A stretch of 20,000 bases of DNA, from the IMG/VR virus record IMGVR_UViG_3300044825_003036; one strand, given 5' to 3'. This document shows, in pieces, positions 3 to 16,551 of the stretch. The notes beneath the pieces are model-generated. The model was not told the DNA's origin. It worked only from the letters and a program-made list of their open reading frames with translations, and did not search any database. Position 1 is the first letter of the stretch, and each line of letters starts with the position of its first letter. This DNA comes from an uncultured virus (IMG/VR IMGVR_UViG_3300044825_003036). Taxonomy: Duplodnaviria > Heunggongvirae > Uroviricota > Caudoviricetes. The position numbers were made by a program, and so were the translations under genes.

Positions 3-1160
3 GCCAAAACCGATCTGGTTGGCACAGGCTTCACGTCGAAGGAGCTCGATCGGATGCTGAGCAAGGCGAAGGTCTCGGCAGTCGAACAGCAGGGCGAGCC
101 GGATGCGGGGGAGCTGCCGACCGAGCCGATTTCCAAGGCCGGCGATCTTTGGCTGCTCGGGGACCATCGGCTGGTGTGTGGGGACTGCCGCGACTCGACG
201 GTGATGGCGCGCCTCATGGACGGCGACTTGGCGGACGAGCTGTTCGCCGATCCGCCGTACGGCATGGGCAAGGAAAAGGATGGGATCGTGGGCGACAACC
301 AGTACGGCCCGAAGCTTGACCAGTTCCAAAGCGAGTGGTGGCGTGCTGTGCGTCCGCACCTCAAGTCGACGGCGGCGGCGTACATCTGGGGCAATGCGCC
401 GGACTTGTGGCGCTGGTGGTTTGGCTGGCTGTCGCTGAGCGAGACGCTCACGTTCCGCAACGAGATTGTTTGGTACAAGGGGGATTACGCTAACGGGCAA
501 CGAACCGCGGTGGCCCTGCAGTACCCGGTTCTGTCCGAGCGCGCGCTTTTTTTCGTTCTGGGGAACCAAGCTGCTGGAGCGCGTAACCAGGCCCGCTATT
601 GGCAGGGGTGGGAACCGATCCGTAGTTACTTGGCGGAGGAGGCCAAGGCGGGCGGGCTCAACGCGGGCAGGGTCAAAGAGCTCACGGGTGCGGGGATGTG
701 GCAACACTGGTTTTCCAAGAGCCAGTGGCTATTCCTGCCTGAGGACGCCTACCAAGCGCTTCGGGCCGCAACTGGACGTTTCGAGAGGTCCTATGCGGCG
801 CTTAGTGCCCAATATGAGGCGCTCCGGTTTGAGTTCGAAAAGCTGCAGACGGCGGAGCGCGCCTACCACGACAACACCCACGAGAAGATGGGCGACGTGT
901 GGGAGTTCCCGCGGCTCGTGGGCGCCGAGCGGCATGGGCACGCGACGCCGAAACCCGTGGCGCTCGCCAAGCGCGCGCTGCTCACGTCGTGCCCGCCTGG
1001 CGGCGTCGCGGTGAGCCCTTTCGGCGGGACGGGCCCCGAGCTGTTGGCGGCGGAGCAAACGGGGCGTAGGGCTCGCCTGGTGGAGCTCCAACCGGCTTAC
1101 GTGGACGTCGTGATCGAGCGGTGGCAGCGATTGACTGGAGGGAAAGCGAAGCGGGGCTGA
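3..1160 (+). CDS. Phage DNA amino-methyltransferase (N6-A/N4-C, beta class; probably ParB-fused), 5'-truncated by the window edge
   Basis: The frame is open from the window start (AKTDLVGTGFTSKELDRML). It has GDLWLLGDHRLVCGD, catalytic DPPY, HATPKPV and the SAM-binding PFGGTG, and ends in ELQPAYVDVVIERWQRLTGG, the usual tail of phage ParB-MTases. Confidence 0.93.
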   Translation, partial: AKTDLVGTGFTSKELDRMLSKAKVSAVEQQGEPDAGELPTEPISKAGDLWLLGDHRLVCGDCRDSTVMARLMDGDLADELFADPPYGMGKEKDGIVGDNQYGPKLDQFQSEWWRAVRPHLKSTAAAYIWGNAPDLWRWWFGWLSLSETLTFRNEIVWYKGDYANGQRTAVALQYPVLSERALFFVLGNQAAGARNQARYWQGWEPIRSYLAEEAKAGGLNAGRVKELTGAGMWQHWFSKSQWLFLPEDAYQALRAATGRFERSYAALSAQYEALRFEFEKLQTAERAYHDNTHEKMGDVWEFPRLVGAERHGHATPKPVALAKRALLTSCPPGGVAVSPFGGTGPELLAAEQTGRRARLVELQPAYVDVVIERWQRLTGGKAKRG

Positions 1161-1241: not shown

Positions 1242-1278
1242 CCCCCGTCTGGTAACCCCAGGCGGGGGTTTTCTTTTT
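1242..1278 (+). terminator. Intrinsic terminator
   Basis: 11-bp stem CCCCCGTCTGG/CCAGGCGGGGG (one G-U) with a 5-nt loop, followed by TTTTCTTTTT. Confidence 0.88.
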
Positions 1279-1312
1279 GGGGGTGACGAAACGTGCCGGG
1301 CTCTTGTTGGAC

Positions 1313-1792
1313 AGATCCCCCCCATTCTTCCCTGGTAGTGACTAGGGAAGGTGTTGGATCTTGGGGACCAGGGGATCCGGGGTCAGTCCTGCTACGCTCT
1401 CCGAACCTGCGAGACCAGGGGTTCTGTGGTGCGCTCTTGGGGACCTATGTCGCTAGCCTGAGGCGGCAGTTACCCCGCCTCGGATACCGAGTGCCTACCG
1501 AGGGGGGGTTGTGCGCGTGGGGCCGTTCGAGCCCACGAGCGATCGGCTGCCTGTTCGAGGCGCGAGAGAGCGCCCCTTGCCAACATGCGGCTGGGTACTG
1601 ACTAGGGTTGCTGACCATTTCGGCTCACGCCGCACACCGGTCCCGCGGGTGCAATGGGGCGCCATCAGCGAAAGCGCTTGGCCCGAAACCGCTTGGCGGC
1701 TGCAGGCGAACAGGGTAGACCTGTGTCCGGGACTGGACTGATACACCGCCCAACCCTACCTCGGACGTAATGCCCCTGGGGTAGGGTTTTTT
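1313..1792 (+). ncRNA. Candidate large structured RNA or attenuator leader (family unknown)
   Basis: No convincing ORF. Helices at 1327-1336/1341-1350 (extended by 1313-1318/1356-1361), 1460-1466/1475-1481, 1516-1521/1532-1537, 1559-1563/1570-1574 and 1586-1591/1629-1634, plus long-range pairs 1547-1557/1707-1718 and 1498-1515/1747-1764. It ends in a terminator. Confidence 0.55.
1752..1792 (+). terminator. Intrinsic terminator, potentially conditional
   Basis: 13-bp stem AACCCTACCTCGG/CTGGGGTAGGGTT (two G-U) with T6 at 1787-1792. Its 5' arm can alternatively pair with 1498-1515. Confidence 0.8.
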
Positions 1793-1927: not shown

Positions 1928-2001
1928 TGCGGTTTAGAGCAGCTCGGTAGCTCGCTAGGCTCATAACCTGGAGGTCGTTGGTTCAAATCCAACAGCCGCA
2001 A
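1928..2001 (+). tRNA. tRNA-Met (CAT), initiator (fMet)-like; CCA not encoded
   Basis: Cloverleaf: acceptor TGCGGTT/AGCCGCA, D arm GAGC-AGCTCGGTA-GCTC, anticodon arm CTAGG-CTCATAA-CCTGG (CAT at 1962-1964), T arm GTTGG-TTCAAAT-CCAAC, discriminator A2001. The D arm, CTCATAA loop and TTCAAAT loop match bacterial initiator tRNAs. Confidence 0.96.
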
Positions 2002-2003
2002 CT

Positions 2004-3806: not shown

Positions 3807-3826
3807 GGCGGCAACGAAAGGACAAG
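3799..3826 (+). promoter_or_regulatory. Hairpin + ACGAAAGGACAAG leader/RBS element, copy 2
   Basis: GCCGC-TGAG-GCGGC-AACGAAAGGACAAG upstream of ATG 3832. The loop contains the upstream gene's TGA stop. Confidence 0.85.
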
Positions 3827-3831
3827 AGGAA

Positions 3832-4809
3832 ATGACGACGACGAAAGAACAGGTGGGCGCGGTGTTGGCTTCGGGCGGCACCCAAACGATTGGAGCTTTG
3901 GTGTTCTGGTCGCTGGCTTCGGTGAGAGTGAAGCGAGACGAGTTCCGCGAGCGGCTGACCTCCCTCGGACTGGACAGTGCCATGGGCAAGGACCCGTCCC
4001 CCCGCAGCGCGCTGAGCAAGGCCGTTGCGGCGGCCTTCACTGGGCGCAAAGGCGTGATGGCGCGGCGTTTGGCGAACGGCAACGTCGGGATCGTGCTGGA
4101 GCGAATTACGGCCGGGCACGCCAAGTATCGGCACGTCGCGACGGTTTCGGCACATTCCGGGGCTTTTCAAACAGACGCTGAGGTCGAACCGTTGCCAGCA
4201 ACCAGCTCCGGCCCCGTCGTGTCCTATGAAGGGGAGACTGAGGGAGTTCCCGCGCGTGAAGCGCTCACAGCTGTGGCCCCGTCGCTCTTGGCTGAGCTGG
4301 GCGCGGCGTACGAGACCGCCAACAGCTACCTGCTCACCAACGACCTGAGTGAGGTGTTGATTTCGGCAGTCAACGGAAGCCCGCACCGTGGGCTTCTGGC
4401 GGGGCTCAGCCTGCGCGAGCGGACCGGCGGGCTCTACTTCATTGCTGGGCCCTACGTGGAGCGGATGCAGCAGCTCCAGCACCTGATCCAGGACGTGGCA
4501 CCGTCGTGTGTCGTGTCGGTGATGACCATCACTGGATCCAAAGAGAACCTTGGCGAGGCGGCTCGCGCGGCTAAGCTGACGTTTGCGGCGCAGCTCGACG
4601 AGCTGAAGACCGAGCTGGTGGACTTCAAGGCGGGGCTGCAGATGAAGGGCAAGGGCGCGTCCGAGTATTCGATCGAGACCCGGATCGAGCGGTACAAGGA
4701 CTTGGCCGCGCGAGTGGCGGTGTTCAAAGACTTGCTTGGGGTCGATGACCTGGAGCGTCAGATCGAGGCGGCCAAGACGGAGATGGTCAAAGAGCTGGAG
4801 GGCCTGTGA
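3832..4809 (+). CDS. DUF6744/DUF3150-like protein with C-terminal coiled coil
   Basis: N-terminal GALVFWSL...LTSLGL...PSPRSALSKAV and internal LRERTGGLYFI recall this mobile-element family; the C-terminus is helical. The ORF is solid, but the family call is from memory. Confidence 0.65.
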   Translation: MTTTKEQVGAVLASGGTQTIGALVFWSLASVRVKRDEFRERLTSLGLDSAMGKDPSPRSALSKAVAAAFTGRKGVMARRLANGNVGIVLERITAGHAKYRHVATVSAHSGAFQTDAEVEPLPATSSGPVVSYEGETEGVPAREALTAVAPSLLAELGAAYETANSYLLTNDLSEVLISAVNGSPHRGLLAGLSLRERTGGLYFIAGPYVERMQQLQHLIQDVAPSCVVSVMTITGSKENLGEAARAAKLTFAAQLDELKTELVDFKAGLQMKGKGASEYSIETRIERYKDLAARVAVFKDLLGVDDLERQIEAAKTEMVKELEGL

Positions 4810-5057
4810 CGCCACGGCAGCAGCTGGTTTGGGCTCGCCGGTGGCTCCAGGTTCATAAGTTTTGGCTGTTGGTGTTTTCCTGCATTCATCAGCCACGTTG
4901 CCTGCTCCTGCGAGTTGCTGCAGTGCTTGACCGTCATGGGCACAAGGCTCTCGACCGAGCCGGAACCGCGAGAGCCAAGGCGCAGTTTCTGCTCGATGAG
5001 ATCGCGAAGAACCCAGAACAGCAGGCCTTTTGGGCTGCAGAGAAGGATCGAACGTGA
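4806..5057 (+). CDS. Hypothetical protein
   Basis: GTGA overlaps at both ends. Confidence 0.6.
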   Translation: MTPRQQLVWARRWLQVHKFWLLVFSCIHQPRCLLLRVAAVLDRHGHKALDRAGTARAKAQFLLDEIAKNPEQQAFWAAEKDRT

Positions 5058-5275
5058 ACGACGACCGGGAAGTGTTTTGGACTCGGATGGTGGTTGCCGC
5101 GCTGTCGAATCCCGCGGTGACGGACGGGCCAGCGGCGCACGTGGCGGAACGAGCTGCCGATCTGGCGGATTGTGCGCTAGTGGAGTTCGATGCCCGTTTT
5201 CGCAGGGACAGCAGCTCGGACCAAGGTGATCCTGAGGAGGCACAAGCCGATCTACCAGATCAAGAACTTCCGTGA
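5054..5275 (+). CDS. Small phage hypothetical protein
   Basis: GTG start overlaps the upstream TGA. AERAADLADCALVEFDARF is a helical pattern typical of small phage proteins. Confidence 0.65.
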   Translation: MNDDREVFWTRMVVAALSNPAVTDGPAAHVAERAADLADCALVEFDARFRRDSSSDQGDPEEAQADLPDQELP

Positions 5276-5570
5276 GAAGTTCCTCTGGCGGCTCGCTGAG
5301 CTTGGGCTGGACCAGGTGGACGTCGCTCAGCGAATGGGCGTGATCCATCGGCGGGTGAAAGCGATCCTCCATGCAAGGCGGATCGAGGAGGCTACTCTGG
5401 CGCGGGTGAGCGCGGCGCTGGAGTGGCCGATCGAGCGGTGGCAGCGCCGGCTACGGGTGCCTAAGTCGCCAGCCAAGACGGCGCTTCGGCACCTCATGGC
5501 GCACGCCGAGCAACAAGCAAAAAAACTGGAGCAGCCGAAAACTTTCCGCTTGCCCCGCTCCGGCGAGTAA
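5226..5570 (+). CDS. XRE/Cro-like helix-turn-helix transcriptional regulator
   Basis: LAELGLDQVDVAQRMGVIHRRVKAIL...EATLARVSAALEW matches the HTH_XRE pattern. The start is uncertain (GTG 5226 or ATG 5190). Confidence 0.8.
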   Translation: MILRRHKPIYQIKNFREKFLWRLAELGLDQVDVAQRMGVIHRRVKAILHARRIEEATLARVSAALEWPIERWQRRLRVPKSPAKTALRHLMAHAEQQAKKLEQPKTFRLPRSGE

Positions 5571-5583
5571 GGGAAGTTTTGGG
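5538..5583 (+). promoter_or_regulatory. Repeated promoter/operator-like motif, copy 2
   Basis: AAAACTT...CTTGCC-N13-TAAGGGAAGTTTTGGG, containing TTGCCC-17-GAAGTT. It overlaps the end and TAA stop of the XRE gene. Confidence 0.7.
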
Positions 5584-5584
5584 G

Positions 5585-5614
5585 GTCGCGGTTTGGCGAC
5601 AACGAAAGGACAAG
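5585..5614 (+). promoter_or_regulatory. Hairpin + ACGAAAGGACAAG leader/RBS element, copy 3
   Basis: GTCGC-GGTTTG-GCGAC-AACGAAAGGACAAG before ATG 5620. The stem has a compensatory C-G to T-A change relative to copies 1 and 2. Confidence 0.85.
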
Positions 5615-5619
5615 CGGAA

Positions 5620-5835
5620 ATGGCAGCTGAAAAGGCACAGGTTGTTGTGGGTGGGTTCGTTCAGGCTCACGTCATGCTACATGCGGACGCGAACGTTCGA
5701 ACGATGTTCCCCTTGCTCCGTCGCAAGGGCTGCCTGGACTCCCAGATCTGGGACTCGATCCGTGAGCTCCGCGCTCGCGGGCTGAACTACGACGCGGTCA
5801 CTGGGGCTTTGCAGTTCGTCAAGGTGGCTGGGTAA
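5620..5835 (+). CDS. Small hypothetical protein
   Basis: ATG 5620 follows the leader element; MAAEKAQVVVGG... Confidence 0.7.
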   Translation: MAAEKAQVVVGGFVQAHVMLHADANVRTMFPLLRRKGCLDSQIWDSIRELRARGLNYDAVTGALQFVKVAG

Positions 5836-5853
5836 AGAAGGGGCCGGGGGGCT

Positions 5854-6036
5854 ATGAGCGAGGACGAGCGAGACACGATTCGCTGCAGTCCCGAGGAGCC
5901 GACGATCCCTGCGCAAGCGCCAAGCTGCGCGGCGGAGCCGGAGGTTCCACGGGACTCAGAGTGGGCAGGTTTTTCAACTGAAATGGCCGCAATTTTGGCC
6001 GAGATACTGGAGGCAGAGTGCAAGATTTGTTCGTGA
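5854..6036 (+). CDS. Small acidic hypothetical protein
   Basis: 60-aa ORF with a G-rich RBS, filling the gap before the ATPase. Confidence 0.5.
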   Translation: MSEDERDTIRCSPEEPTIPAQAPSCAAEPEVPRDSEWAGFSTEMAAILAEILEAECKICS

Positions 6037-7151
6037 ACTTGGGGAAGTCATTGGGTGCTACGTTTCGTGAACGTGACGAAGTGATCAATGGGCTGATGTG
6101 TGCGGCGCTGGCGCAGGAGCACGTGCTTCTGCTCGGGCCACCTGGTACGGCCAAGAGCGCGCTGGCGCGAGCGTTTGCGGAGTCGGTGGGCGGCCACCAT
6201 TTCGAGTGGCTGCTCAGCAAGTTCACCGCGCCGGAGGAGCTGTTTGGGCCGATCTCGTTGCAGGGGCTCAAGGCAGATCGCTACCGTCGAGTGACGACCG
6301 GCAAGCTGCCCGAGGCGGAAACGGTGTTCCTGGACGAGATCTTCAAGGGCGGTTCGGCGATCCTGAATACGCTCCTGGCCGCGATCAACGAACGCGTGTT
6401 CCACAACGACGGCCAGGTGCAAAAGCTGCCGCTCCGAATGGTGATCGGCGCGTCCAACGAGCTACCCGAGGGCCCCGAGCTCGGCGCACTCTACGACCGG
6501 TTCTTGTTGCGCTACTGGGTGGGTTACCTGCAGGGCCCGACCCAGTTTATTTCGATGATGCGTTCGTCGGAGCAGCTGTTCTCTCGGGTCATTTCGACCG
6601 AGCAATGGGACACGGCGCGGGCAGAGGTCGCTAAGCTTCCGGTCGATCCGGACTTGTACCAGAGCTTTTTCAAGCTCCGCACCGAGGCGCAGAAGGTCGG
6701 TCTAGCGCTCTCGGACCGACGTTGGATGCGGATGATTCGCCTAGTCAAGGCCAGCGCTTGGCTTGCTGGGGACAAGGTCGCCGACCTGGAGCATTTCGAC
6801 GTGTTGAAGGCGGCGCTGTGGAGCGACCCAGGCGAGCGCGACGCAGCCAACAAGCTCGTGGAAGACACGGTCGGCGGCGTGCTGACGCTGGCGGCGTCGG
6901 TGAGCCAGACGATCGAGCGGCAGGTGCAGAATGCTCAGCTGGACTTGGCTATTCCGGCGCGTGATGCTGAGTGGCAGCGGAAGCTGATCACAGCGCAGCA
7001 AGAAACGTCGCGCGGCGTCGCGCGGCTCAAAGAGCTGCAGACGCAGGCGGCAACCAAGAGTCAGAAGGCCAAGCTGGCGGCGCTGGTCGAGAAGGCCGAG
7101 CAGACCGTGGCCCCGGTGAAAGCCACCCTCAAGGCATCGCTGGAGATCTGA
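6018..7151 (+). CDS. MoxR-family AAA+ ATPase (RavA-like)
   Basis: HVLLLGPPGTAKS (Walker A), FTAPEELFGP, VFLDEIFK (Walker B), ILNTLL..INER, GASNELP, LYDRF and LSDRRW are all RavA-like signatures. Confidence 0.95.
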   Translation: MQDLFVNLGKSLGATFRERDEVINGLMCAALAQEHVLLLGPPGTAKSALARAFAESVGGHHFEWLLSKFTAPEELFGPISLQGLKADRYRRVTTGKLPEAETVFLDEIFKGGSAILNTLLAAINERVFHNDGQVQKLPLRMVIGASNELPEGPELGALYDRFLLRYWVGYLQGPTQFISMMRSSEQLFSRVISTEQWDTARAEVAKLPVDPDLYQSFFKLRTEAQKVGLALSDRRWMRMIRLVKASAWLAGDKVADLEHFDVLKAALWSDPGERDAANKLVEDTVGGVLTLAASVSQTIERQVQNAQLDLAIPARDAEWQRKLITAQQETSRGVARLKELQTQAATKSQKAKLAALVEKAEQTVAPVKATLKASLEI

Positions 7152-9028
7152 TGACGCATCTTATTACTGCGGGCGATGGTACCCAAATGACGGTTGCTGA
7201 CGATGCCTTCGATCCAGACCCTGGGAGCTCGATTCGCCGAGACCGCTTTACGGTTCGGTCCGCTCGACGGGTTGAGATCGGGGGCCGTTTCTCCGCTTGC
7301 CTCGATCTCAACGGCGGTGGCTTTTGGGCGGTGCAAAACACCTCCAATTCCAAAGGCGGTCCGCCGGTAGCGACTTTGGCTGGTAGTGTTTGGAGCAAGG
7401 AGCACTCGCGCCAACTCGCGGCCTTGGCTGACGGCGTTCCCTACGTCCCTGGGGTGCCCGCTTTTGGCAAGCCTAGCCAGAGTCCCGAGGATATCGCCAA
7501 GGCGATGCTGGAGGTGCTTGTGCAGAGTCGCGACGCCACAGTGGAGTCAACGGACATGGTTCGTTACTTGGTAGGCAACGAGGCAGCGGCAGGAGGGACT
7601 TTTCGCGAGGCGTGCCTGCGCCACGAGAACGAGACATGGCCAACGTTCGCGCGTGAGCTGTTCGCCTCGCTCTACGATGAGCCAAAGCCAACAGACAGCA
7701 GACCGCAAGGACCCGAGTGGATAGTTACGTTGCTGCAGGCCGCCAAGAACAGCGCAAGCTGGCCCGATCTGCAGCGCCTAGCCAAGGGCGAGCCGTGGTC
7801 GGCGGGAGTAGGCGCCGCGGAGATCGTCCAGGCCCTGGGCGAGACAATCAACGATCTGCTGGAGGAGCTCCCGAAAGAGGACCCACAACGACTGCAGGAC
7901 CAGGCGGACCAGCTGGCGGAGATGGTCGGAGAGGACCACGAGGCGACGACGGAGGAGCAAGCAAAGGCGGACGCGGTGCAGGCAGCCCAGCTGAAGGTCG
8001 CGGAGGCGCTACAGACGCTCGATTTGGCCAGCGTCCCGGCGGCTGTGACGGCCGCTGTCCAAGCTCTGGCTGGCATCGATGGGCAGCTGCAGGCGCTTGG
8101 AGCGGGGAGCAACAACCCCAACCCGTTGCTTGCCAGCACCCCTCACGAGGTGCGCGAAGCCCTGGCAAAGAACCCCGTCCTGCGGGGGATTGCTGACGTC
8201 GCGGGGCGACTGCGCGTCGCGGCGCGCGCTGTAAAACGGAACAAGGTTCGGTACCTGCCCGAGCAGATCGTGGACGTGTCGTTGGGGGCAGAGCTCTCGC
8301 GGCTGCTTCCTGCTGAGCTGCTCCAGTTGGCTGAGCCTGACGTCGAGGACAACCTGTTGCGGAAGCTGTCGGAGTCCCAGGCGATGGTCTACGACCTGGA
8401 AGGGTCAGAGCCGGTCAAGATGGGGCCGATTGTGGTCGCCATCGATTCGTCCTCCTCGATGGCTGGCCAGCGTTACGAGTGGGCAATGGGCGTGGCGCTC
8501 GCGCTGGTTGAGCGAGCGGTGTCGGACAAGCGGCCTTTCCGGCTCTTCACGTTCGCAATGCGACCCAACACGGTCTACACCGTGGACAAGCCGCGGGACA
8601 TTACCGTGCATCTGCTCCAGGAAATGCTGACGACATTCTCGGGCGGTGGGACCGACATTGGTCGAGCGGTGCGCCAAGCGGCGGAGCTCACTCGGGACAA
8701 GACGTGGACCAAGGCGGACCTGGTGCTGATCTCCGACGGTGAAGACGGCGATTTCTCGCCCAGCTTGTACGAGCTTTCTGAGCAGGGCGTCTGCGCTTAC
8801 GGGATCTCGATCGGATCGACGTTCTCGGAGCCGGTCAAGTCGGCGATGAGTGGCGTAGCGGCGGTCTCGGACCTACAGATCCAAGATGGCAGCGCCAACG
8901 TGGACGTGGTGTTTGGGCTCGATGGGGTTCCCAGAACGCTCCCAACACCTGCAGTTGTGAGTAAAGTGGATTCACTTGCAGCGGAGACAGCGGCGGCTCG
9001 TAAGCGAGCGATGGACACTCCGTTTTGA
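7151..9028 (+). CDS. VWA-domain protein (ViaA-like partner of the AAA+ ATPase)
   Basis: TGATG coupling to the ATPase. It has LGAELSRLLPAELL, the MIDAS motif GPIVVAIDSSSSM, GGGTD and ADLVLISDG. Confidence 0.92.
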   Translation: MTHLITAGDGTQMTVADDAFDPDPGSSIRRDRFTVRSARRVEIGGRFSACLDLNGGGFWAVQNTSNSKGGPPVATLAGSVWSKEHSRQLAALADGVPYVPGVPAFGKPSQSPEDIAKAMLEVLVQSRDATVESTDMVRYLVGNEAAAGGTFREACLRHENETWPTFARELFASLYDEPKPTDSRPQGPEWIVTLLQAAKNSASWPDLQRLAKGEPWSAGVGAAEIVQALGETINDLLEELPKEDPQRLQDQADQLAEMVGEDHEATTEEQAKADAVQAAQLKVAEALQTLDLASVPAAVTAAVQALAGIDGQLQALGAGSNNPNPLLASTPHEVREALAKNPVLRGIADVAGRLRVAARAVKRNKVRYLPEQIVDVSLGAELSRLLPAELLQLAEPDVEDNLLRKLSESQAMVYDLEGSEPVKMGPIVVAIDSSSSMAGQRYEWAMGVALALVERAVSDKRPFRLFTFAMRPNTVYTVDKPRDITVHLLQEMLTTFSGGGTDIGRAVRQAAELTRDKTWTKADLVLISDGEDGDFSPSLYELSEQGVCAYGISIGSTFSEPVKSAMSGVAAVSDLQIQDGSANVDVVFGLDGVPRTLPTPAVVSKVDSLAAETAAARKRAMDTPF

Positions 9029-9123
9029 GGGCCGATCAGGTTCTACCCGGTGACCAGGTAGTTGACCCTGGCACCGAGGGGCCGCGCCAAGGATGCACGG
9101 TCCCTGCAGGACGAAAGATGCGA

Positions 9124-9150
9124 GGGCGCAGGCCCGTACGAAAGGACAAG
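9124..9150 (+). promoter_or_regulatory. Hairpin + ACGAAAGGACAAG leader/RBS element, copy 4
   Basis: GGGC-GCAG-GCCC-GT-ACGAAAGGACAAG before ATG 9155. The stem sequence differs but pairing is kept. Confidence 0.8.
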
Positions 9151-9154
9151 AGCG

Positions 9155-10447
9155 ATGCGACGACTACAGATCCTCACGAATAGCGAGGTCGAGACCTACC
9201 GCAATTGCGGGGCAAAACATGGGTTTGCCTACCAGCAGTTGCTCCGGCCGCGAATCGATGGCGAGGCCAAGCCCGCTGGCTCGATCCTCCACGCTGGTAT
9301 CGAGGCGGGCTGGCGTGCAGCGTGGGAGCAACCCGACACGCTCGACGGGCGCCTGCAGCGGGCGATCGCGGCGTCGGCGGAGACGATCGCGTCGGCGACG
9401 CTGGACGAGTGCAAACGCGTCGCGCTGCTCGGCGGCGAGGGCTCGGACGAGCTGATCGCGAAGCTGGAGGGGCAAAGCGAAGCACTTCGCTGGAGCGTGG
9501 AGAACTACTTTCGGGCGACGCGTCCCGATCTGGACTACGTCCCGGTGTGCATTGAGCGGCAGTTCTCGTTCCTTGTGCCGACCGACCGCGGCAACGACTC
9601 GATGGTGTCCTATCAGGGTAAGACGGACCTGGTGTTGTGGGACCGCGAGGCGAACCGTTTGATCGTCCAGGACCACAAGGGGACGGGGCTCGGCGTGCGG
9701 CAACTGGAGCGCAAGATCCCGCTCGACACCCAGCTTTCTGGGTATGTTTTTTGGGTTCGGAAAGCGCTACGTGACCTTGCAGCACAGCCGGAATCCCCGT
9801 TGCTCGCGATGGCCGTAGGCGCTCCGGTTCACGCCTGGGAGACGATTCGGGATAACCCACCAATCACGGCCCCAGTGGTTGGCTCGATTGCCTTCAACGT
9901 GCTCCGTCGCAAGCAGCCGGAGACGCCCGGGATCAACATCCTCAAAAAGAACGAGGCAGTGACCGAGTGGCAGCGAGAGCTGCTGGCGTTACAAGCCACG
10001 GACGGCAAGCCGCGGGGGTTGGTCTCTGTTGCCGACTGCGACACCACGCCAGGCATTTACGGCGACGCGTTGACGGAGCAGCTGGTGGGTCGCGGGCTAG
10101 AGATCACGGACAAGCAGCGCGAGCGGCTGGAGAAGATCCGTCACAAGGCGGGGTTCTTCGCCCAGCTGGAGTATTACCGAGGCGAGGCGGAGCTGGAACG
10201 CTGGCGCCGCGAGTTGTTGCTGGACGCCAAGAAGATCCGCGACGACGGCCGAGCCGGGCAGCGCTCGCGCAATCCCGGGGCGTGTGCCCAGCCGTGGAGC
10301 CCGCCGTGCGCATACGCGACCGTTTGCCAGGCGCCGGCCGATCCGGTAGCACTGGCGCAATACGTGGTGGTGGACAGGCCCCACCAGGAACTGGAGCAGC
10401 AAGACCATGGCAGCGAAGAAGACCAGCAAATCCACGACTACATCTGA
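9155..10447 (+). CDS. PD-(D/E)XK exonuclease, AddB/Cas4-like with putative 4Fe-4S ligands
   Basis: N-terminal NSEVETYRNC, GSILH, E in CIERQF, GKTDLV...VQDHK, QLSGY, and C-terminal C-x7-C-x5-C (CAQPWSPPCAYATVC). The start was chosen at the ATG after the leader element. Confidence 0.88.
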   Translation: MRRLQILTNSEVETYRNCGAKHGFAYQQLLRPRIDGEAKPAGSILHAGIEAGWRAAWEQPDTLDGRLQRAIAASAETIASATLDECKRVALLGGEGSDELIAKLEGQSEALRWSVENYFRATRPDLDYVPVCIERQFSFLVPTDRGNDSMVSYQGKTDLVLWDREANRLIVQDHKGTGLGVRQLERKIPLDTQLSGYVFWVRKALRDLAAQPESPLLAMAVGAPVHAWETIRDNPPITAPVVGSIAFNVLRRKQPETPGINILKKNEAVTEWQRELLALQATDGKPRGLVSVADCDTTPGIYGDALTEQLVGRGLEITDKQRERLEKIRHKAGFFAQLEYYRGEAELERWRRELLLDAKKIRDDGRAGQRSRNPGACAQPWSPPCAYATVCQAPADPVALAQYVVVDRPHQELEQQDHGSEEDQQIHDYI

Positions 10448-10838
10448 CGCGGCGGAGGCAACGGAGAAGCTCTCCAAGCGAGCAGCGAGCGGCGACAAGG
10501 GCGCGCTAGCCGCGGTGACGGAGATCGTCACCAGTTACAACCAGGTCCAAGACGCGAAAGAGCGCAAGGTCAAGGTGGCAAAGACGACGAAGTCTCGCGA
10601 GGAGCAGGAGTTTGCCGCGGTGAAGAACGCGATCGAGGACTCGCTTCCGACGGATGCAGGCGCTCAGACGGTGCTCGGTAAACTGCAGACGATCGAGCAG
10701 TCTTGGCAGGACTACCAGGAGGCGCTCGCGCAGGGCGTCGAGGAGCGCAAGGAGTCCAAGGAAGCGCTCAAGGCCGCGGAGAAGCGGTTCGAGCGGGCTG
10801 TGAAGGATTCGGCGCAATTGGCGCTTGATTTCGAGTGA
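10407..10838 (+). CDS. Coiled-coil hypothetical protein
   Basis: 143-aa charged helical ORF with typical high-GC codon usage, ending in QLALDFE. Confidence 0.8.
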   Translation: MAAKKTSKSTTTSDAAEATEKLSKRAASGDKGALAAVTEIVTSYNQVQDAKERKVKVAKTTKSREEQEFAAVKNAIEDSLPTDAGAQTVLGKLQTIEQSWQDYQEALAQGVEERKESKEALKAAEKRFERAVKDSAQLALDFE

Positions 10839-10858
10839 TCTGGATGCTTGATTGAGGC

Positions 10859-10888
10859 TGCCGCGGTTGGCGGCAACGAAAGGACGAG
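10859..10888 (+). promoter_or_regulatory. Hairpin + ACGAAAGGAC(G)AG leader/RBS element, copy 5
   Basis: TGCCGCGGTTGGCGGCAACGAAAGGAC is identical over 27 nt to 2308-2334; ATG at 10895. Confidence 0.88.
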
Positions 10889-10894
10889 GACGAA

Positions 10895-11968
10895 ATGAAA
10901 CGGTTGGACGATCGGGAGTCGGTGTGGCTGAAAGCGGCGATCTACGGAAAGCCAGGCACGGGAAAGACGTCTATCGGGGTTAGCGCGCCCAAGCCGCTGA
11001 TTCTGTTGGCTGAGGCGCAAGGCCTGGTCCATGTGCGGCAGGCGGCGAAGCGGCTGGGGGTTCCCGTGCCACCCACGTTTTTGATCGAGAGCGTGGACGA
11101 CTACCGGGCTTGGCTGCGCGCCCTCAACGGGGACCGGTCCAAGCCGCTAACGGTGCGCGAGCGGCACACAGTCGACGGCAAGATCGAGGAGATCGTTGTG
11201 GTCCAGCTCGACGAATGGCCCGAGACGGTGGTGTTGGATTCGCTGACGGAGGCAGGGACGCTGATCGTCCGTGAGATCCGTTGGTTGTCGCCTCCGACGA
11301 AGGGTAAGGACGGGCTCCCAACGGATTCGCAGCGCTTTTGGAACGTGCTGGGGGACCGTTTCAAAGCGCTCGTCCATGGTTTCCGCGATTTGCCAATGCA
11401 CGTGCTTTTCCTGGGTCTGATGGACGACCGCTCGGAGGGCGAGGAGGACGCAAAGACCCGCAACGTCACGATGGATCTGCCGATGCGCAAGCTCCCAGCG
11501 CTTGTGAGTTCGGCGGTAAACGTCGTGGGGTATTCGTACCGTCGCGAGGTGCGCAAAGCGAACAAGCCCACCGAGCTCCAATATGGCGTCATGACCTCCG
11601 GCCCGGAGTACATGATGCTAAAGCCAATGAGGCCGCTCCGCGACACTGAAGTGCCCAACTTCGCGCGATGGGTTGCGGCTGTTCGTGGGCACTTGGCTGA
11701 CGCGAGTCCAGCGCCGGAGCCGTCTGGGGAATCCCTGATGGCCGGAGACCTGGAGCCGCAGCCGCAGCCAACGACGGCAGAAGGCGAGCCGGTTCAAGAA
11801 GGGGCGGCGCCCGACGGTGAACCACCGCGCGCTCAGGTTGTTGATTTGTTCGATGCCCAGACCAGCCTAGCTGGTGTGGGCGAGGCAGAGGAAGGGGCTG
11901 AGCCCCAGGCAAAGAAGGCCAAGAAAGGAAAAAAGAACGATGCCCAAGATGGGTCCGAGGGGAACTGA
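10895..11968 (+). CDS. AAA_24 / Sak4-like phage recombination NTPase
   Basis: IYGKPGTGKT (Walker A), VVLDSLT (Walker B) and LPMHVLF. It sits between a nuclease and an SSB-like gene, as in Sak4 modules. Confidence 0.85.
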   Translation: MKRLDDRESVWLKAAIYGKPGTGKTSIGVSAPKPLILLAEAQGLVHVRQAAKRLGVPVPPTFLIESVDDYRAWLRALNGDRSKPLTVRERHTVDGKIEEIVVVQLDEWPETVVLDSLTEAGTLIVREIRWLSPPTKGKDGLPTDSQRFWNVLGDRFKALVHGFRDLPMHVLFLGLMDDRSEGEEDAKTRNVTMDLPMRKLPALVSSAVNVVGYSYRREVRKANKPTELQYGVMTSGPEYMMLKPMRPLRDTEVPNFARWVAAVRGHLADASPAPEPSGESLMAGDLEPQPQPTTAEGEPVQEGAAPDGEPPRAQVVDLFDAQTSLAGVGEAEEGAEPQAKKAKKGKKNDAQDGSEGN

Positions 11969-12614
11969 AAGCAACAACGAGCAGCGCGAGCAGCGCGGCG
12001 CGGTACCAGGCGGGCGCTATCCCAGCGCCATGGTGTGGTTCAATCGGCGGCAGGCCAAGAGCAGCGGAAACGACTTCCTTCGTGGGACGTTCGAGATCTG
12101 CGGTGGGCCGCTCAAAGGGCGGCGCTACTACGCGATGCTTTCGTGTGACATCACTCGCGCCGGAACCATGAAGCGCTGGGAAGTGCTGATGGAGAGTTGC
12201 GGCGTAACCGAGGAGTTCGAGATCGGTTCCAATCATGAGGGCAACGCTCGCGAGGGCGACCGGAACATCAGATCTCGGTTCTTGGGTCGTCCGTTCGTGG
12301 CGATCGTCAAGCGAGAGCGCGACGGCAACTACGAGAACAACGATATCGAGTCGTTGGTGTTCCCGAACCGGTGGACGGACGAGGAGCGCGAGCAGATGGC
12401 CGAGTGGGCGCACGCCTACCAGTGCGAGCAGGAGAAGAAGGGCTACAATCGAAACCGCTCACCCGAGGCGAGCGCTCAGCGTCCAGAGGACGACGGCGGA
12501 GAGTTCACCGGCGAGGGTGAGGATCGGTACGATTCGTTCGAGGATGCCGGACAGTATGGTGACACCGAATTCGACGACAGCGGCGACAGCCCCCCTCCCC
12601 CCGACGAATTCTAA
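11940..12614 (+). CDS. Phage single-stranded DNA-binding-like protein (DUF669-like)
   Basis: AVPGGRY...SSGNDFLRGTFEICGGPLKGR...FLGRPFVAIVK...YENNDI, then a long acidic tail ending PPPPDEF. It follows the Sak4-like gene. Confidence 0.78.
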   Translation: MPKMGPRGTESNNEQREQRGAVPGGRYPSAMVWFNRRQAKSSGNDFLRGTFEICGGPLKGRRYYAMLSCDITRAGTMKRWEVLMESCGVTEEFEIGSNHEGNAREGDRNIRSRFLGRPFVAIVKRERDGNYENNDIESLVFPNRWTDEEREQMAEWAHAYQCEQEKKGYNRNRSPEASAQRPEDDGGEFTGEGEDRYDSFEDAGQYGDTEFDDSGDSPPPPDEF

Positions 12615-15988: not shown

Positions 15989-16551
15989 TGTATGTCTTGG
16001 ATGTGCCACAACCCCGCGCGGCGGCGTTGATTGCGGGACAGTTGGAGGCCTTGGATTTCTACCGAGCGCCTCCAGCTGACGTTTTGGGTCGGCGAGTAGC
16101 AATCCGAGCTGGCGAGATGGTTAGTTTCGATCTGTGGGCGTTGCGAGTGGGGGCCAAAGTGACCTGGGGCCCAAAGCAGACGTTTGGGCGGGGGATTGTT
16201 GGCACAGCCGTCATAGAAGGGTGGGTCGAGTGGGAGCGCGGCGAGATCGTGAGGCAGACCAGGCCGGGGAATAGTCGGCCTTTCCGCAAGCCTCGGGGTG
16301 TGTGCGGACCGTTCTCGTGGATCTTGCGGCACGCGTCGCTTTCAGGCGCGCCGCCTGGGCCTGATTTGGTGCCGCTTCGCGCTGGATATTGGGACTTGCC
16401 AGAGGTGCAAGAGCACCTGCTATGCTACGCTGAGCGCTATGGGGTGTCAGGACTGGCACCCGATCTGCTGGCGAAGCTGGAGCAGCTGAGGGCGGAACGA
16501 AAGGACAAGACGAATGAAGACGGCAGTCCCCAAAGAGGGGGTTTGGTTTGA
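15988..16551 (+). CDS. ASCH/PUA-like domain protein (divergent)
   Basis: TAGTG-coupled start. VLDVPQPRAAALIAG, GRRVAIRAG, GIVGTAVI, GPFSWIL and GYWDL follow the phage ASCH layout. Confidence 0.7.
   Translation: MYVLDVPQPRAAALIAGQLEALDFYRAPPADVLGRRVAIRAGEMVSFDLWALRVGAKVTWGPKQTFGRGIVGTAVIEGWVEWERGEIVRQTRPGNSRPFRKPRGVCGPFSWILRHASLSGAPPGPDLVPLRAGYWDLPEVQEHLLCYAERYGVSGLAPDLLAKLEQLRAERKDKTNEDGSPQRGGLV
16482..16509 (+). promoter_or_regulatory. ACGAAAGGACAAG leader/RBS element, copy 6 (weak hairpin)
   Basis: GCAGCTGAGGGCGG-AACGAAAGGACAAG before ATG 16514. It resembles copy 2 but lies inside the upstream CDS, and the stem is degraded. Confidence 0.7.

Follow-up and report, generated by a model that had tools for sequence, protein, structure and literature searches.

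Just upstream of a tRNA gene in a contig of an uncultured phage, several short segments can pair with one another in alternating registers, and the last of them form an intrinsic terminator. This arrangement raises the question whether the helices are a switch that controls the tRNA or whether the terminator belongs to something else. The window (the whole stretch of 20,000 nucleotides that was analysed) is part of a phage contig with genes for a DNA methyltransferase, a DUF6744 protein, a MoxR AAA/vWA pair, a PD-(D/E)XK nuclease, Sak4, a replication initiator and a LexA-like protein, and its closest protein relatives (P0002-P0004) show 51-53% identity. The longest contig that encodes the DUF6744 protein measures 64 kb, and the protein is best represented in freshwater metagenomes, a possible source of the phage. 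From 1161 to 2340 the order is a terminator (1242-1276), the candidate RNA discussed below, a second terminator (1752-1792), a tRNA-Met, a structured stretch and, ahead of the genes that follow, their leader. The features are:

54-1160, plus strand: DNA methyltransferase gene (N6_N4_Mtase), the upstream neighbour; a 52% identical ortholog lies beside the homolog in the related phage contig L025
1242-1276, plus strand: intrinsic terminator of the methyltransferase transcript, an 11-bp stem with a T-run
1277-1378, plus strand: non-coding stretch with a long hairpin at 1312-1361, either a promoter region or a 5' portion of the RNA that varies
1379-1792, plus strand: candidate stand-alone phage ncRNA of ~410 nt; homolog in L025 at 2550-2133, minus strand
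1460-1466, plus strand: segment A, the partner of B, for which L025 showed no counterpart
1466-1515, plus strand: B:C hairpin (B 1472-1483, C 1498-1515); in L025 the corresponding place (2471-2431) holds a long hairpin that differs in sequence
1747-1792, plus strand: segment D and the terminator D:E with T6; in L025 a 14-bp terminator (2168-2138) of unrelated sequence at the same end
1928-2002, plus strand: tRNA-Met (CAT), with no encoded CCA; absent from L025

The original prediction named five segments, A to E, and their pairings could all be traced. A (1460-1466) pairs with 1475-1481 in 7/7 positions, B (1472-1483) with 1498-1509 in 11/12 (one G.G), and C (1498-1515) with 1747-1764 in 16/18, including one G.U; the terminator stem joins 1752-1763 to 1777-1788 in 12/12 positions, including two G.U, and is followed by T6 (1787-1792). 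B and D, which had been said to resemble each other, are identical at 10 of 12 positions. Against shuffled sequences C:D beats chance only modestly: C is the best duplex partner of D within 1277-1745 (-28.2 kcal/mol) and was matched by 18/1000 shuffles, and a looser chain, in which a partner of D at or below -25 also pairs with a 5' neighbour at or below -18, arose in 91/1500. The terminator hairpin D:E beats 196/200 shuffles (4/200 as good), and the folding of 1440-1800 as a whole is no better than that of shuffles (z -1.28; 12/100 as good). Duplication of a hairpin as the origin of the likeness between B and D was rejected, because the likeness of the B:C and D:E hairpins (26/39 columns) is not significant (332/2000 shuffles). 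Three pairs of near-perfect 13-nt direct repeats occur in 1277-1800 (0/200 shuffles), and L025 is without such repeats.

The nested multibranch domain that had been proposed as a sensor exists in part. The helix 1550-1557/1707-1714 has 8 bp but needs a bulge to reach 1547/1718, and the helices at 1516-1537, 1559-1574 and 1586-1634 have 5-6 bp each. As a sensor the domain fares poorly, since two of its helices stay below P 0.1 in the ensemble (1550/1714, P 0.00; 1559-1574, P <=0.09); the helix 1586-1634 is mostly at P 0.65-0.98, with one value of 0.19.

We examined the switching logic by stepwise equilibrium folding of the growing transcript, with the RNA starting at 1277 or at 1375. When the transcript holds D and not yet E, C:D is populated, as had been predicted (P 0.99/0.98 at transcript ends 1764/1775 for start 1277, and 0.65/0.45 for start 1375); a kinetic anti-terminator is therefore physically possible. 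At transcript end 1790, C:D has fallen to P 0.00 and D:E has risen to P 1.00. C:D and D:E are mutually exclusive, as they share arm D, and three states lie within 4 kcal/mol: A:B with D:E (-191.5 kcal/mol, the lowest), B:C with D:E (-188.9) and A:B with C:D (-187.5). The two-state scheme, in which A:B with C:D would give read-through and B:C with D:E termination, does not agree with these values, because the best fold, C having other partners, combines A:B with D:E. Nor does A gate the terminator as proposed: with the RNA starting at 1277, C:D stands at P 0.99 while A:B stands at only 0.01. The statement that no known riboswitch or T-box signature is present held up, in that a scan with the T-box antiterminator motif found none and no Rfam family matched. 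The features of a leader-peptide attenuator were likewise missing here, with no SD, no Met-rich leader peptide and no codon signal in a stretch holding four ATG triplets.

A homolog allowed these pairings to be compared between phages. Loci were gathered with a DUF6744 alignment, and blastn was run over 26 loci (363 kb) before any model existed. This blind search gave one match, in L025 (E 0.015). The gene order of L025 is as in the window, with the methyltransferase (52% identical), a gap, small genes and DUF6744, and the homolog occupies the syntenic gap that separates the methyltransferase gene from DUF6744, on the opposite strand, spanning 2550-2133 (minus) and ending in its own terminator. 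Local alignment of 1379-1683 scored 58.5 against a shuffle maximum of 50.5 (0/300), and alignment to the other strand of L025 remained at chance level (184/300). The part 5' of the core (1615-1679) is significant alone (3/500 shuffles); by sequence the part 3' of 1684 is not (87/500), and neither is 1277-1378 against its L025 counterpart (33/500). Global identity amounts to 243/451 columns. The L025 terminator, a hairpin with a T-run equalled by 0/200 shuffles, has the same sense as that of the window copy, and no tRNA lies downstream of the element. In another relative, L021, both flanking genes are present and the element is absent; the element is carried by one of the two relatives with both flanking genes in view.

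This single homolog changes how the locus is read. No anti-terminator is seen in it, the best duplex being -20.3 with 661/1000 shuffles as good, so the predicted C:D helix is not conserved between the two copies. For C:D this is an outcome that the original prediction had itself named as refuting, here on one homolog. A long hairpin does occupy the place of B:C, but no counterpart of A:B was seen. The position upstream of a tRNA, which had suggested control of that gene, is not kept in this one homolog either: the L025 copy is inverted, lacks the tRNA and is directed into the methyltransferase gene's end. The reading of the chain as a switch is thus mostly not supported. Because the element keeps its own terminator while its orientation and its downstream neighbour differ, it seems to behave as a gene and not as a leader.

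The two copies are homologous and non-coding, and each carries a strand-specific terminator. Codon periodicity was absent from all six frames of either copy and present in control genes, no recorded protein matched any of ten frames looked up, and searches with two frames returned no credible protein homolog. A hidden protein gene was rejected, as there is no codon signal and the two phmmer matches were repetitive or of low complexity. We favour, at somewhat better than even chance, the explanation that 1379-1792 is a self-contained phage ncRNA gene of ~410 nt (up to ~515 nt if 1277-1378 is included) that ends at D:E and acts in trans. To judge from the sequences, the two copies are probably the known members of a new phage ncRNA family with a predicted structure. 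Three elements of that structure are:

1382-1742, plus strand: predicted closing helix P1 (1382-1389 with 1735-1742), P 0.94 in 1375-1790 and 0.17 in 1277-1790
1615-1679, plus strand: best-conserved core, 74% identity over 66 columns to L025
1710-1724, plus strand: small hairpin in common with L025 (2219-2204), the two differing by one double change at the base; P is >0.96 in almost every fold, one value being 0.56

L025 has a 7-bp helix in the register of P1 (2548-2542 with 2189-2183) with two double changes, and the candidate shared helices with double changes are P1, 1635-1651 and 1710-1724. Since P1 crosses C:D, the two cannot both be nested. Within the core, the blocks 1615-1624, 1651-1662 and 1673-1679 are identical in L025. 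The core can fold either as a three-way junction or with 1651-1662 pairing to 1570-1580, and a junction or an alternative long helix around it could be drawn by hand for both copies; in each of them, folding predicts the junction for the strand opposite the terminator and not for the strand that bears it. Whole-RNA folding did not exceed that of shuffles on either strand (terminator strand, z -0.4 and -0.1 for the two copies; opposite strand, z -0.9 and -1.7). The strand assignment therefore rests on the terminators. Relative to the best fold, a shared model drawn by hand is less stable by 22-28 kcal/mol for the window copy and by 14-15 for L025. For these two sequences the shared structure stayed within an identity-preserving null (alifold 26/60, Sankoff 9/40, shared-helix counts 16-48 of 50), also with the terminator left out (15/30 sense, 23/37 antisense); the Sankoff score of 427 exceeded all plain shuffles (0/22), which reflects sequence homology and not structure, and the Sankoff alignments shifted with the parameters. 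Self-complementary motifs occur in both copies, at 1452-1457 and 1672-1679 in the window; the first is aligned in the structural alignment, not in the sequence-only alignment.

Variants of the phage gave a further view of the element. The contig X7 (depth 3.4) has C1633T, C1703T and G1718A, and among the 5 of its 9 differences that are listed none falls in D or E. A loop pseudoknot of 1392-1395 with 1715-1718, possible in both copies, was dropped as it is broken by G1718A in this low-depth contig. The near-identical variant X4 has no listed change in 1161-1821 and likewise none over 3976-5883, so it is uninformative on constraint. A sigma-70 promoter consensus was found neither for either copy, nor in 1277-1378, nor between the terminator and the tRNA; the scan, which used this consensus, finds almost no promoters anywhere in this phage.

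After searches for further members the family stands at two divergent sequences, the window copy and L025. With the exception of the tRNA and of matches at chance level, Rfam covariance models found nothing in either copy up to E 10, and they found nothing at the gathering threshold on 10 family loci. A strict core pattern had 0 matches in viral contigs and 0 in genome contigs; a loose one found at least 117 stretches, and none among the matches listed scored as a homolog. The 9 matches of a 5' motif pattern were not homologous. Blastn yielded nothing or short chance pieces, both from phages, searched with either copy, and from plasmids, searched with the window core. The covariance model R1 ranked L025 first among 96 loci (E 1.9e-5, next 0.046), a value that is not independent as the R1 structure was drawn with L025 in view; the match at E 0.046 lacks the core. 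R1 found two partial matches (E 0.02 and 0.089) in 50 virus records searched whole, and its best match in a set of 78 loci had E 0.87. No description of the element was found in the literature. A fragment could be among the 10,006 candidate RNAs of 29-151 nt reported in the excerpted text of PMC10690425.

The tRNA said to follow the terminator is real, a tRNA-Met with anticodon CAT. It looks initiator-like and an initiator identity is plausible, but two features count against it by the criteria for initiator tRNAs: only two G-C pairs are present at the end of the anticodon stem, and the first position is paired. The spacer just before it is variable, as 1912-1923 is replaced in X4 by 133 different letters, which may be a small insert or one more tRNA. 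An 8-mer with the hexamer TTGACT is found only at window 1847 (-) and 2024 (+) and at L025 2120 (-); it forms an inverted pair around the tRNA in the window and lies just past the RNA terminator in L025, with no -10 box after it. Directly behind the tRNA is a second non-coding stretch (2003-2220), which an inverted repeat of 17 bp (2004-2020 with 2200-2216) closes. Its fold is far more stable than those of shuffles (z -4.0, 0/100; reverse strand z -4.3), and it has no Rfam match and no phage match; it is a candidate for a second ncRNA or a small IS-like insert at the tRNA 3' end. The idea that 2003-2240 is a paralog of the upstream candidate RNA was rejected, as the two are unrelated.

Several observations concern the wider gene set. 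The module DUF6744, MoxR AAA, vWA, PD-(D/E)XK nuclease, Sak4 and DUF669 (window 3832-12611) is common to at least 12 virus loci fetched, and we found no literature on DUF6744 together with phage. A leader is repeated before five ORFs (2308-2337, 3807-3827, 5568-5614, 10859-10888 and 16491-16510), consisting of a GC hairpin (three copies) and then a purine-rich ribosome-binding tract, with up to 29/30 letters identical; a translational or transcriptional regulon of the phage is possible. An A-run with the motif CCTGCCC occurs once at window 2245 (+) and once at L025 2642 (-), beside the early-gene leader region, and is possibly a promoter element. At an unrelated methyltransferase locus (L015 761-911), ARAGORN reported a tRNA with anticodon TTA (ochre-suppressor-like) adjoining a tRNA-Leu.

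Comparison with known RNAs gave likenesses of context. GOLLD and ROOL (RF02032 and RF03087) share with the candidate RNA that they are phage-encoded and, in the window though not in L025, the nearby tRNA, here a tRNA-Met 135 nt downstream. According to excerpts of PMC12286853 and PMC5737381, both are large phage or prophage ncRNAs of unknown function that are often near tRNAs, and one GOLLD sits downstream of a Met-tRNA. In the same excerpts, self-complementary loops make intermolecular bridges in GOLLD and OLE; in those of PMC12286853, kissing loops, of which some are palindromic, serve the assembly of GOLLD and ROOL. Unlike these RNAs, the candidate RNA has no Rfam match and is shorter, at ~410 nt where ROOL averages 581 nt and GOLLD often exceeds 800 nt; the likeness is one of context. 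The covariance models of GOLLD, ROOL and OLE matched neither copy.

A structure followed by a 3' terminator is also seen in the DUF3800-I, drum and FuFi-1 RNAs, as well as in skipping-rope. Parts of PMC5737381 describe these as riboswitch-like RNAs with an intrinsic terminator that are unlikely to be riboswitches as they are rarely in 5' UTRs. The same argument against a riboswitch applies here; the candidate RNA differs in having no Rfam match and no DUF3800 gene among the ORFs scanned. With attenuators and T-box leaders it shares a terminator before a downstream gene and an upstream segment that can pair with the 5' arm, and 3' terminators exapted as attenuators, including 'mobile' attenuators, have been described (PMC2965389, in the part available). 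It differs from them in that T-box motif, leader peptide and aptamer are missing and neither the anti-terminator nor the downstream gene is conserved in L025.

Other known classes were considered as well. A heptamer resembling the boxA/nut consensus occurs in both copies (window 1433, L025 2502) and again at 1300 and 1863, but it has 13 occurrences across the two strands of the 20-kb window, with no boxB or N-like partner identified, and it may be a hairpin arm instead. Sponges of the CsrB/RsmZ type have a high density of GGA motifs; this class was rejected, because each copy has 10 GGA and 470/500 and 269/500 shuffles have as many. Type I toxin mRNAs enclose a conserved short hydrophobic ORF in a structured RNA, and this class was set aside since there is no shared or hydrophobic ORF with an SD and no credible protein homolog. 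ARAGORN found no tmRNA, and RNase P, SRP, 6S, group I-II introns and small ribozymes were rejected with no Rfam match and no hammerhead core.

We then weighed what else the conserved stretch could be. A ligand-sensing riboswitch or attenuator in which A to E toggle the terminator to control the tRNA would be new, as Rfam holds no match, and it can call on pairings that all exist and on three states close in energy. It is nevertheless very improbable: A:B coexists with D:E in the best fold, C:D forms without A:B, the pair probabilities of the A-E helices flip with the choice of folded window, two of the proposed sensor helices are hardly populated, no T-box motif, SD or leader peptide is present, and the homolog is inverted, with no tRNA, no A:B seen and no anti-terminator. 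A hybrid would keep the ncRNA gene and have its terminator co-opted in this lineage, with C:D as a constitutive kinetic anti-terminator that lets partial run-through reach the tRNA-Met without any ligand. The population of C:D before E is complete speaks for it from either start, as do the 18/1000 shuffles that match the C:D duplex, the missing sigma-70 consensus before the tRNA and the precedent of terminators exapted as attenuators (PMC2965389, in part). This hybrid is still unlikely, because the anti-terminator is absent from L025 (661/1000), D:E wins once E is made, C:D excludes a nested P1, the missing promoter says little where almost none is found in the whole phage, and the spacer before the tRNA is variable.

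The conserved stretch could also work as DNA, as a protein-binding, packaging, recombination or replication site, with terminators that merely insulate it. The homology at the level of sequence, with structure conservation not above the identity-preserving null, the unremarkable folding on both strands and the short direct repeats of the window copy would all agree with this. We regard it as an unlikely alternative, since the element keeps a terminator at the corresponding end and on the corresponding strand in both phages despite unrelated sequence, L025 has no such direct repeats, the likely replication initiator is ~11 kb away, and a relative with the same gene order does without the element, as would be expected of an accessory gene more than of an essential cis site. 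That two phages carry the element at one locus in opposite orientations, the patchy presence and the pairing of the 5' and 3' ends recall a small non-autonomous mobile element or a ribozyme-derived insert that landed in either orientation. This origin seems quite improbable: the ends pair over a short length, with G.U among the pairs, the element is not bordered by a long terminal inverted repeat, the window holds one copy, Rfam gave no ribozyme or intron family and no hammerhead core was seen, and the 25 ORFs scanned include neither transposase nor reverse transcriptase.

If the stretch is a self-contained ncRNA gene, the candidate RNA would be transcribed as its own unit, stop at D:E and fold as a multibranch domain closed by P1. 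By analogy with GOLLD and ROOL, it would most likely work in trans while the phage infects, providing a host or phage protein with a structured scaffold or a decoy, and the invariant core (1615-1679) might be its working surface. The alternating helices would largely be a by-product of two similar C-rich/G-rich hairpins, B:C and D:E, whose arms cross-pair because of this similarity, and the window copy abounds in short internal duplications. There is also a slim chance that the RNA is a new large ornate phage RNA that self-assembles via 1452-1457/1672-1679, its terminator co-opted as a folding-dependent gate on the initiator-like tRNA-Met; if so, synthesis of the tRNA-Met would be coupled to the fold of the RNA or to what it binds.

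This case shows that mutually exclusive helices before a terminator, in DNA rich in G/C runs, are weak evidence for a switch; one homolog was enough to change the reading. Only a few large RNAs of phages with no known function have been described, GOLLD and ROOL among them, and recent structures of these revealed cages made of RNA alone. Another family unrelated to them, from an uncultured phage group and only ~410 nt long, would lend itself by its short length to direct transcription, probing and imaging.
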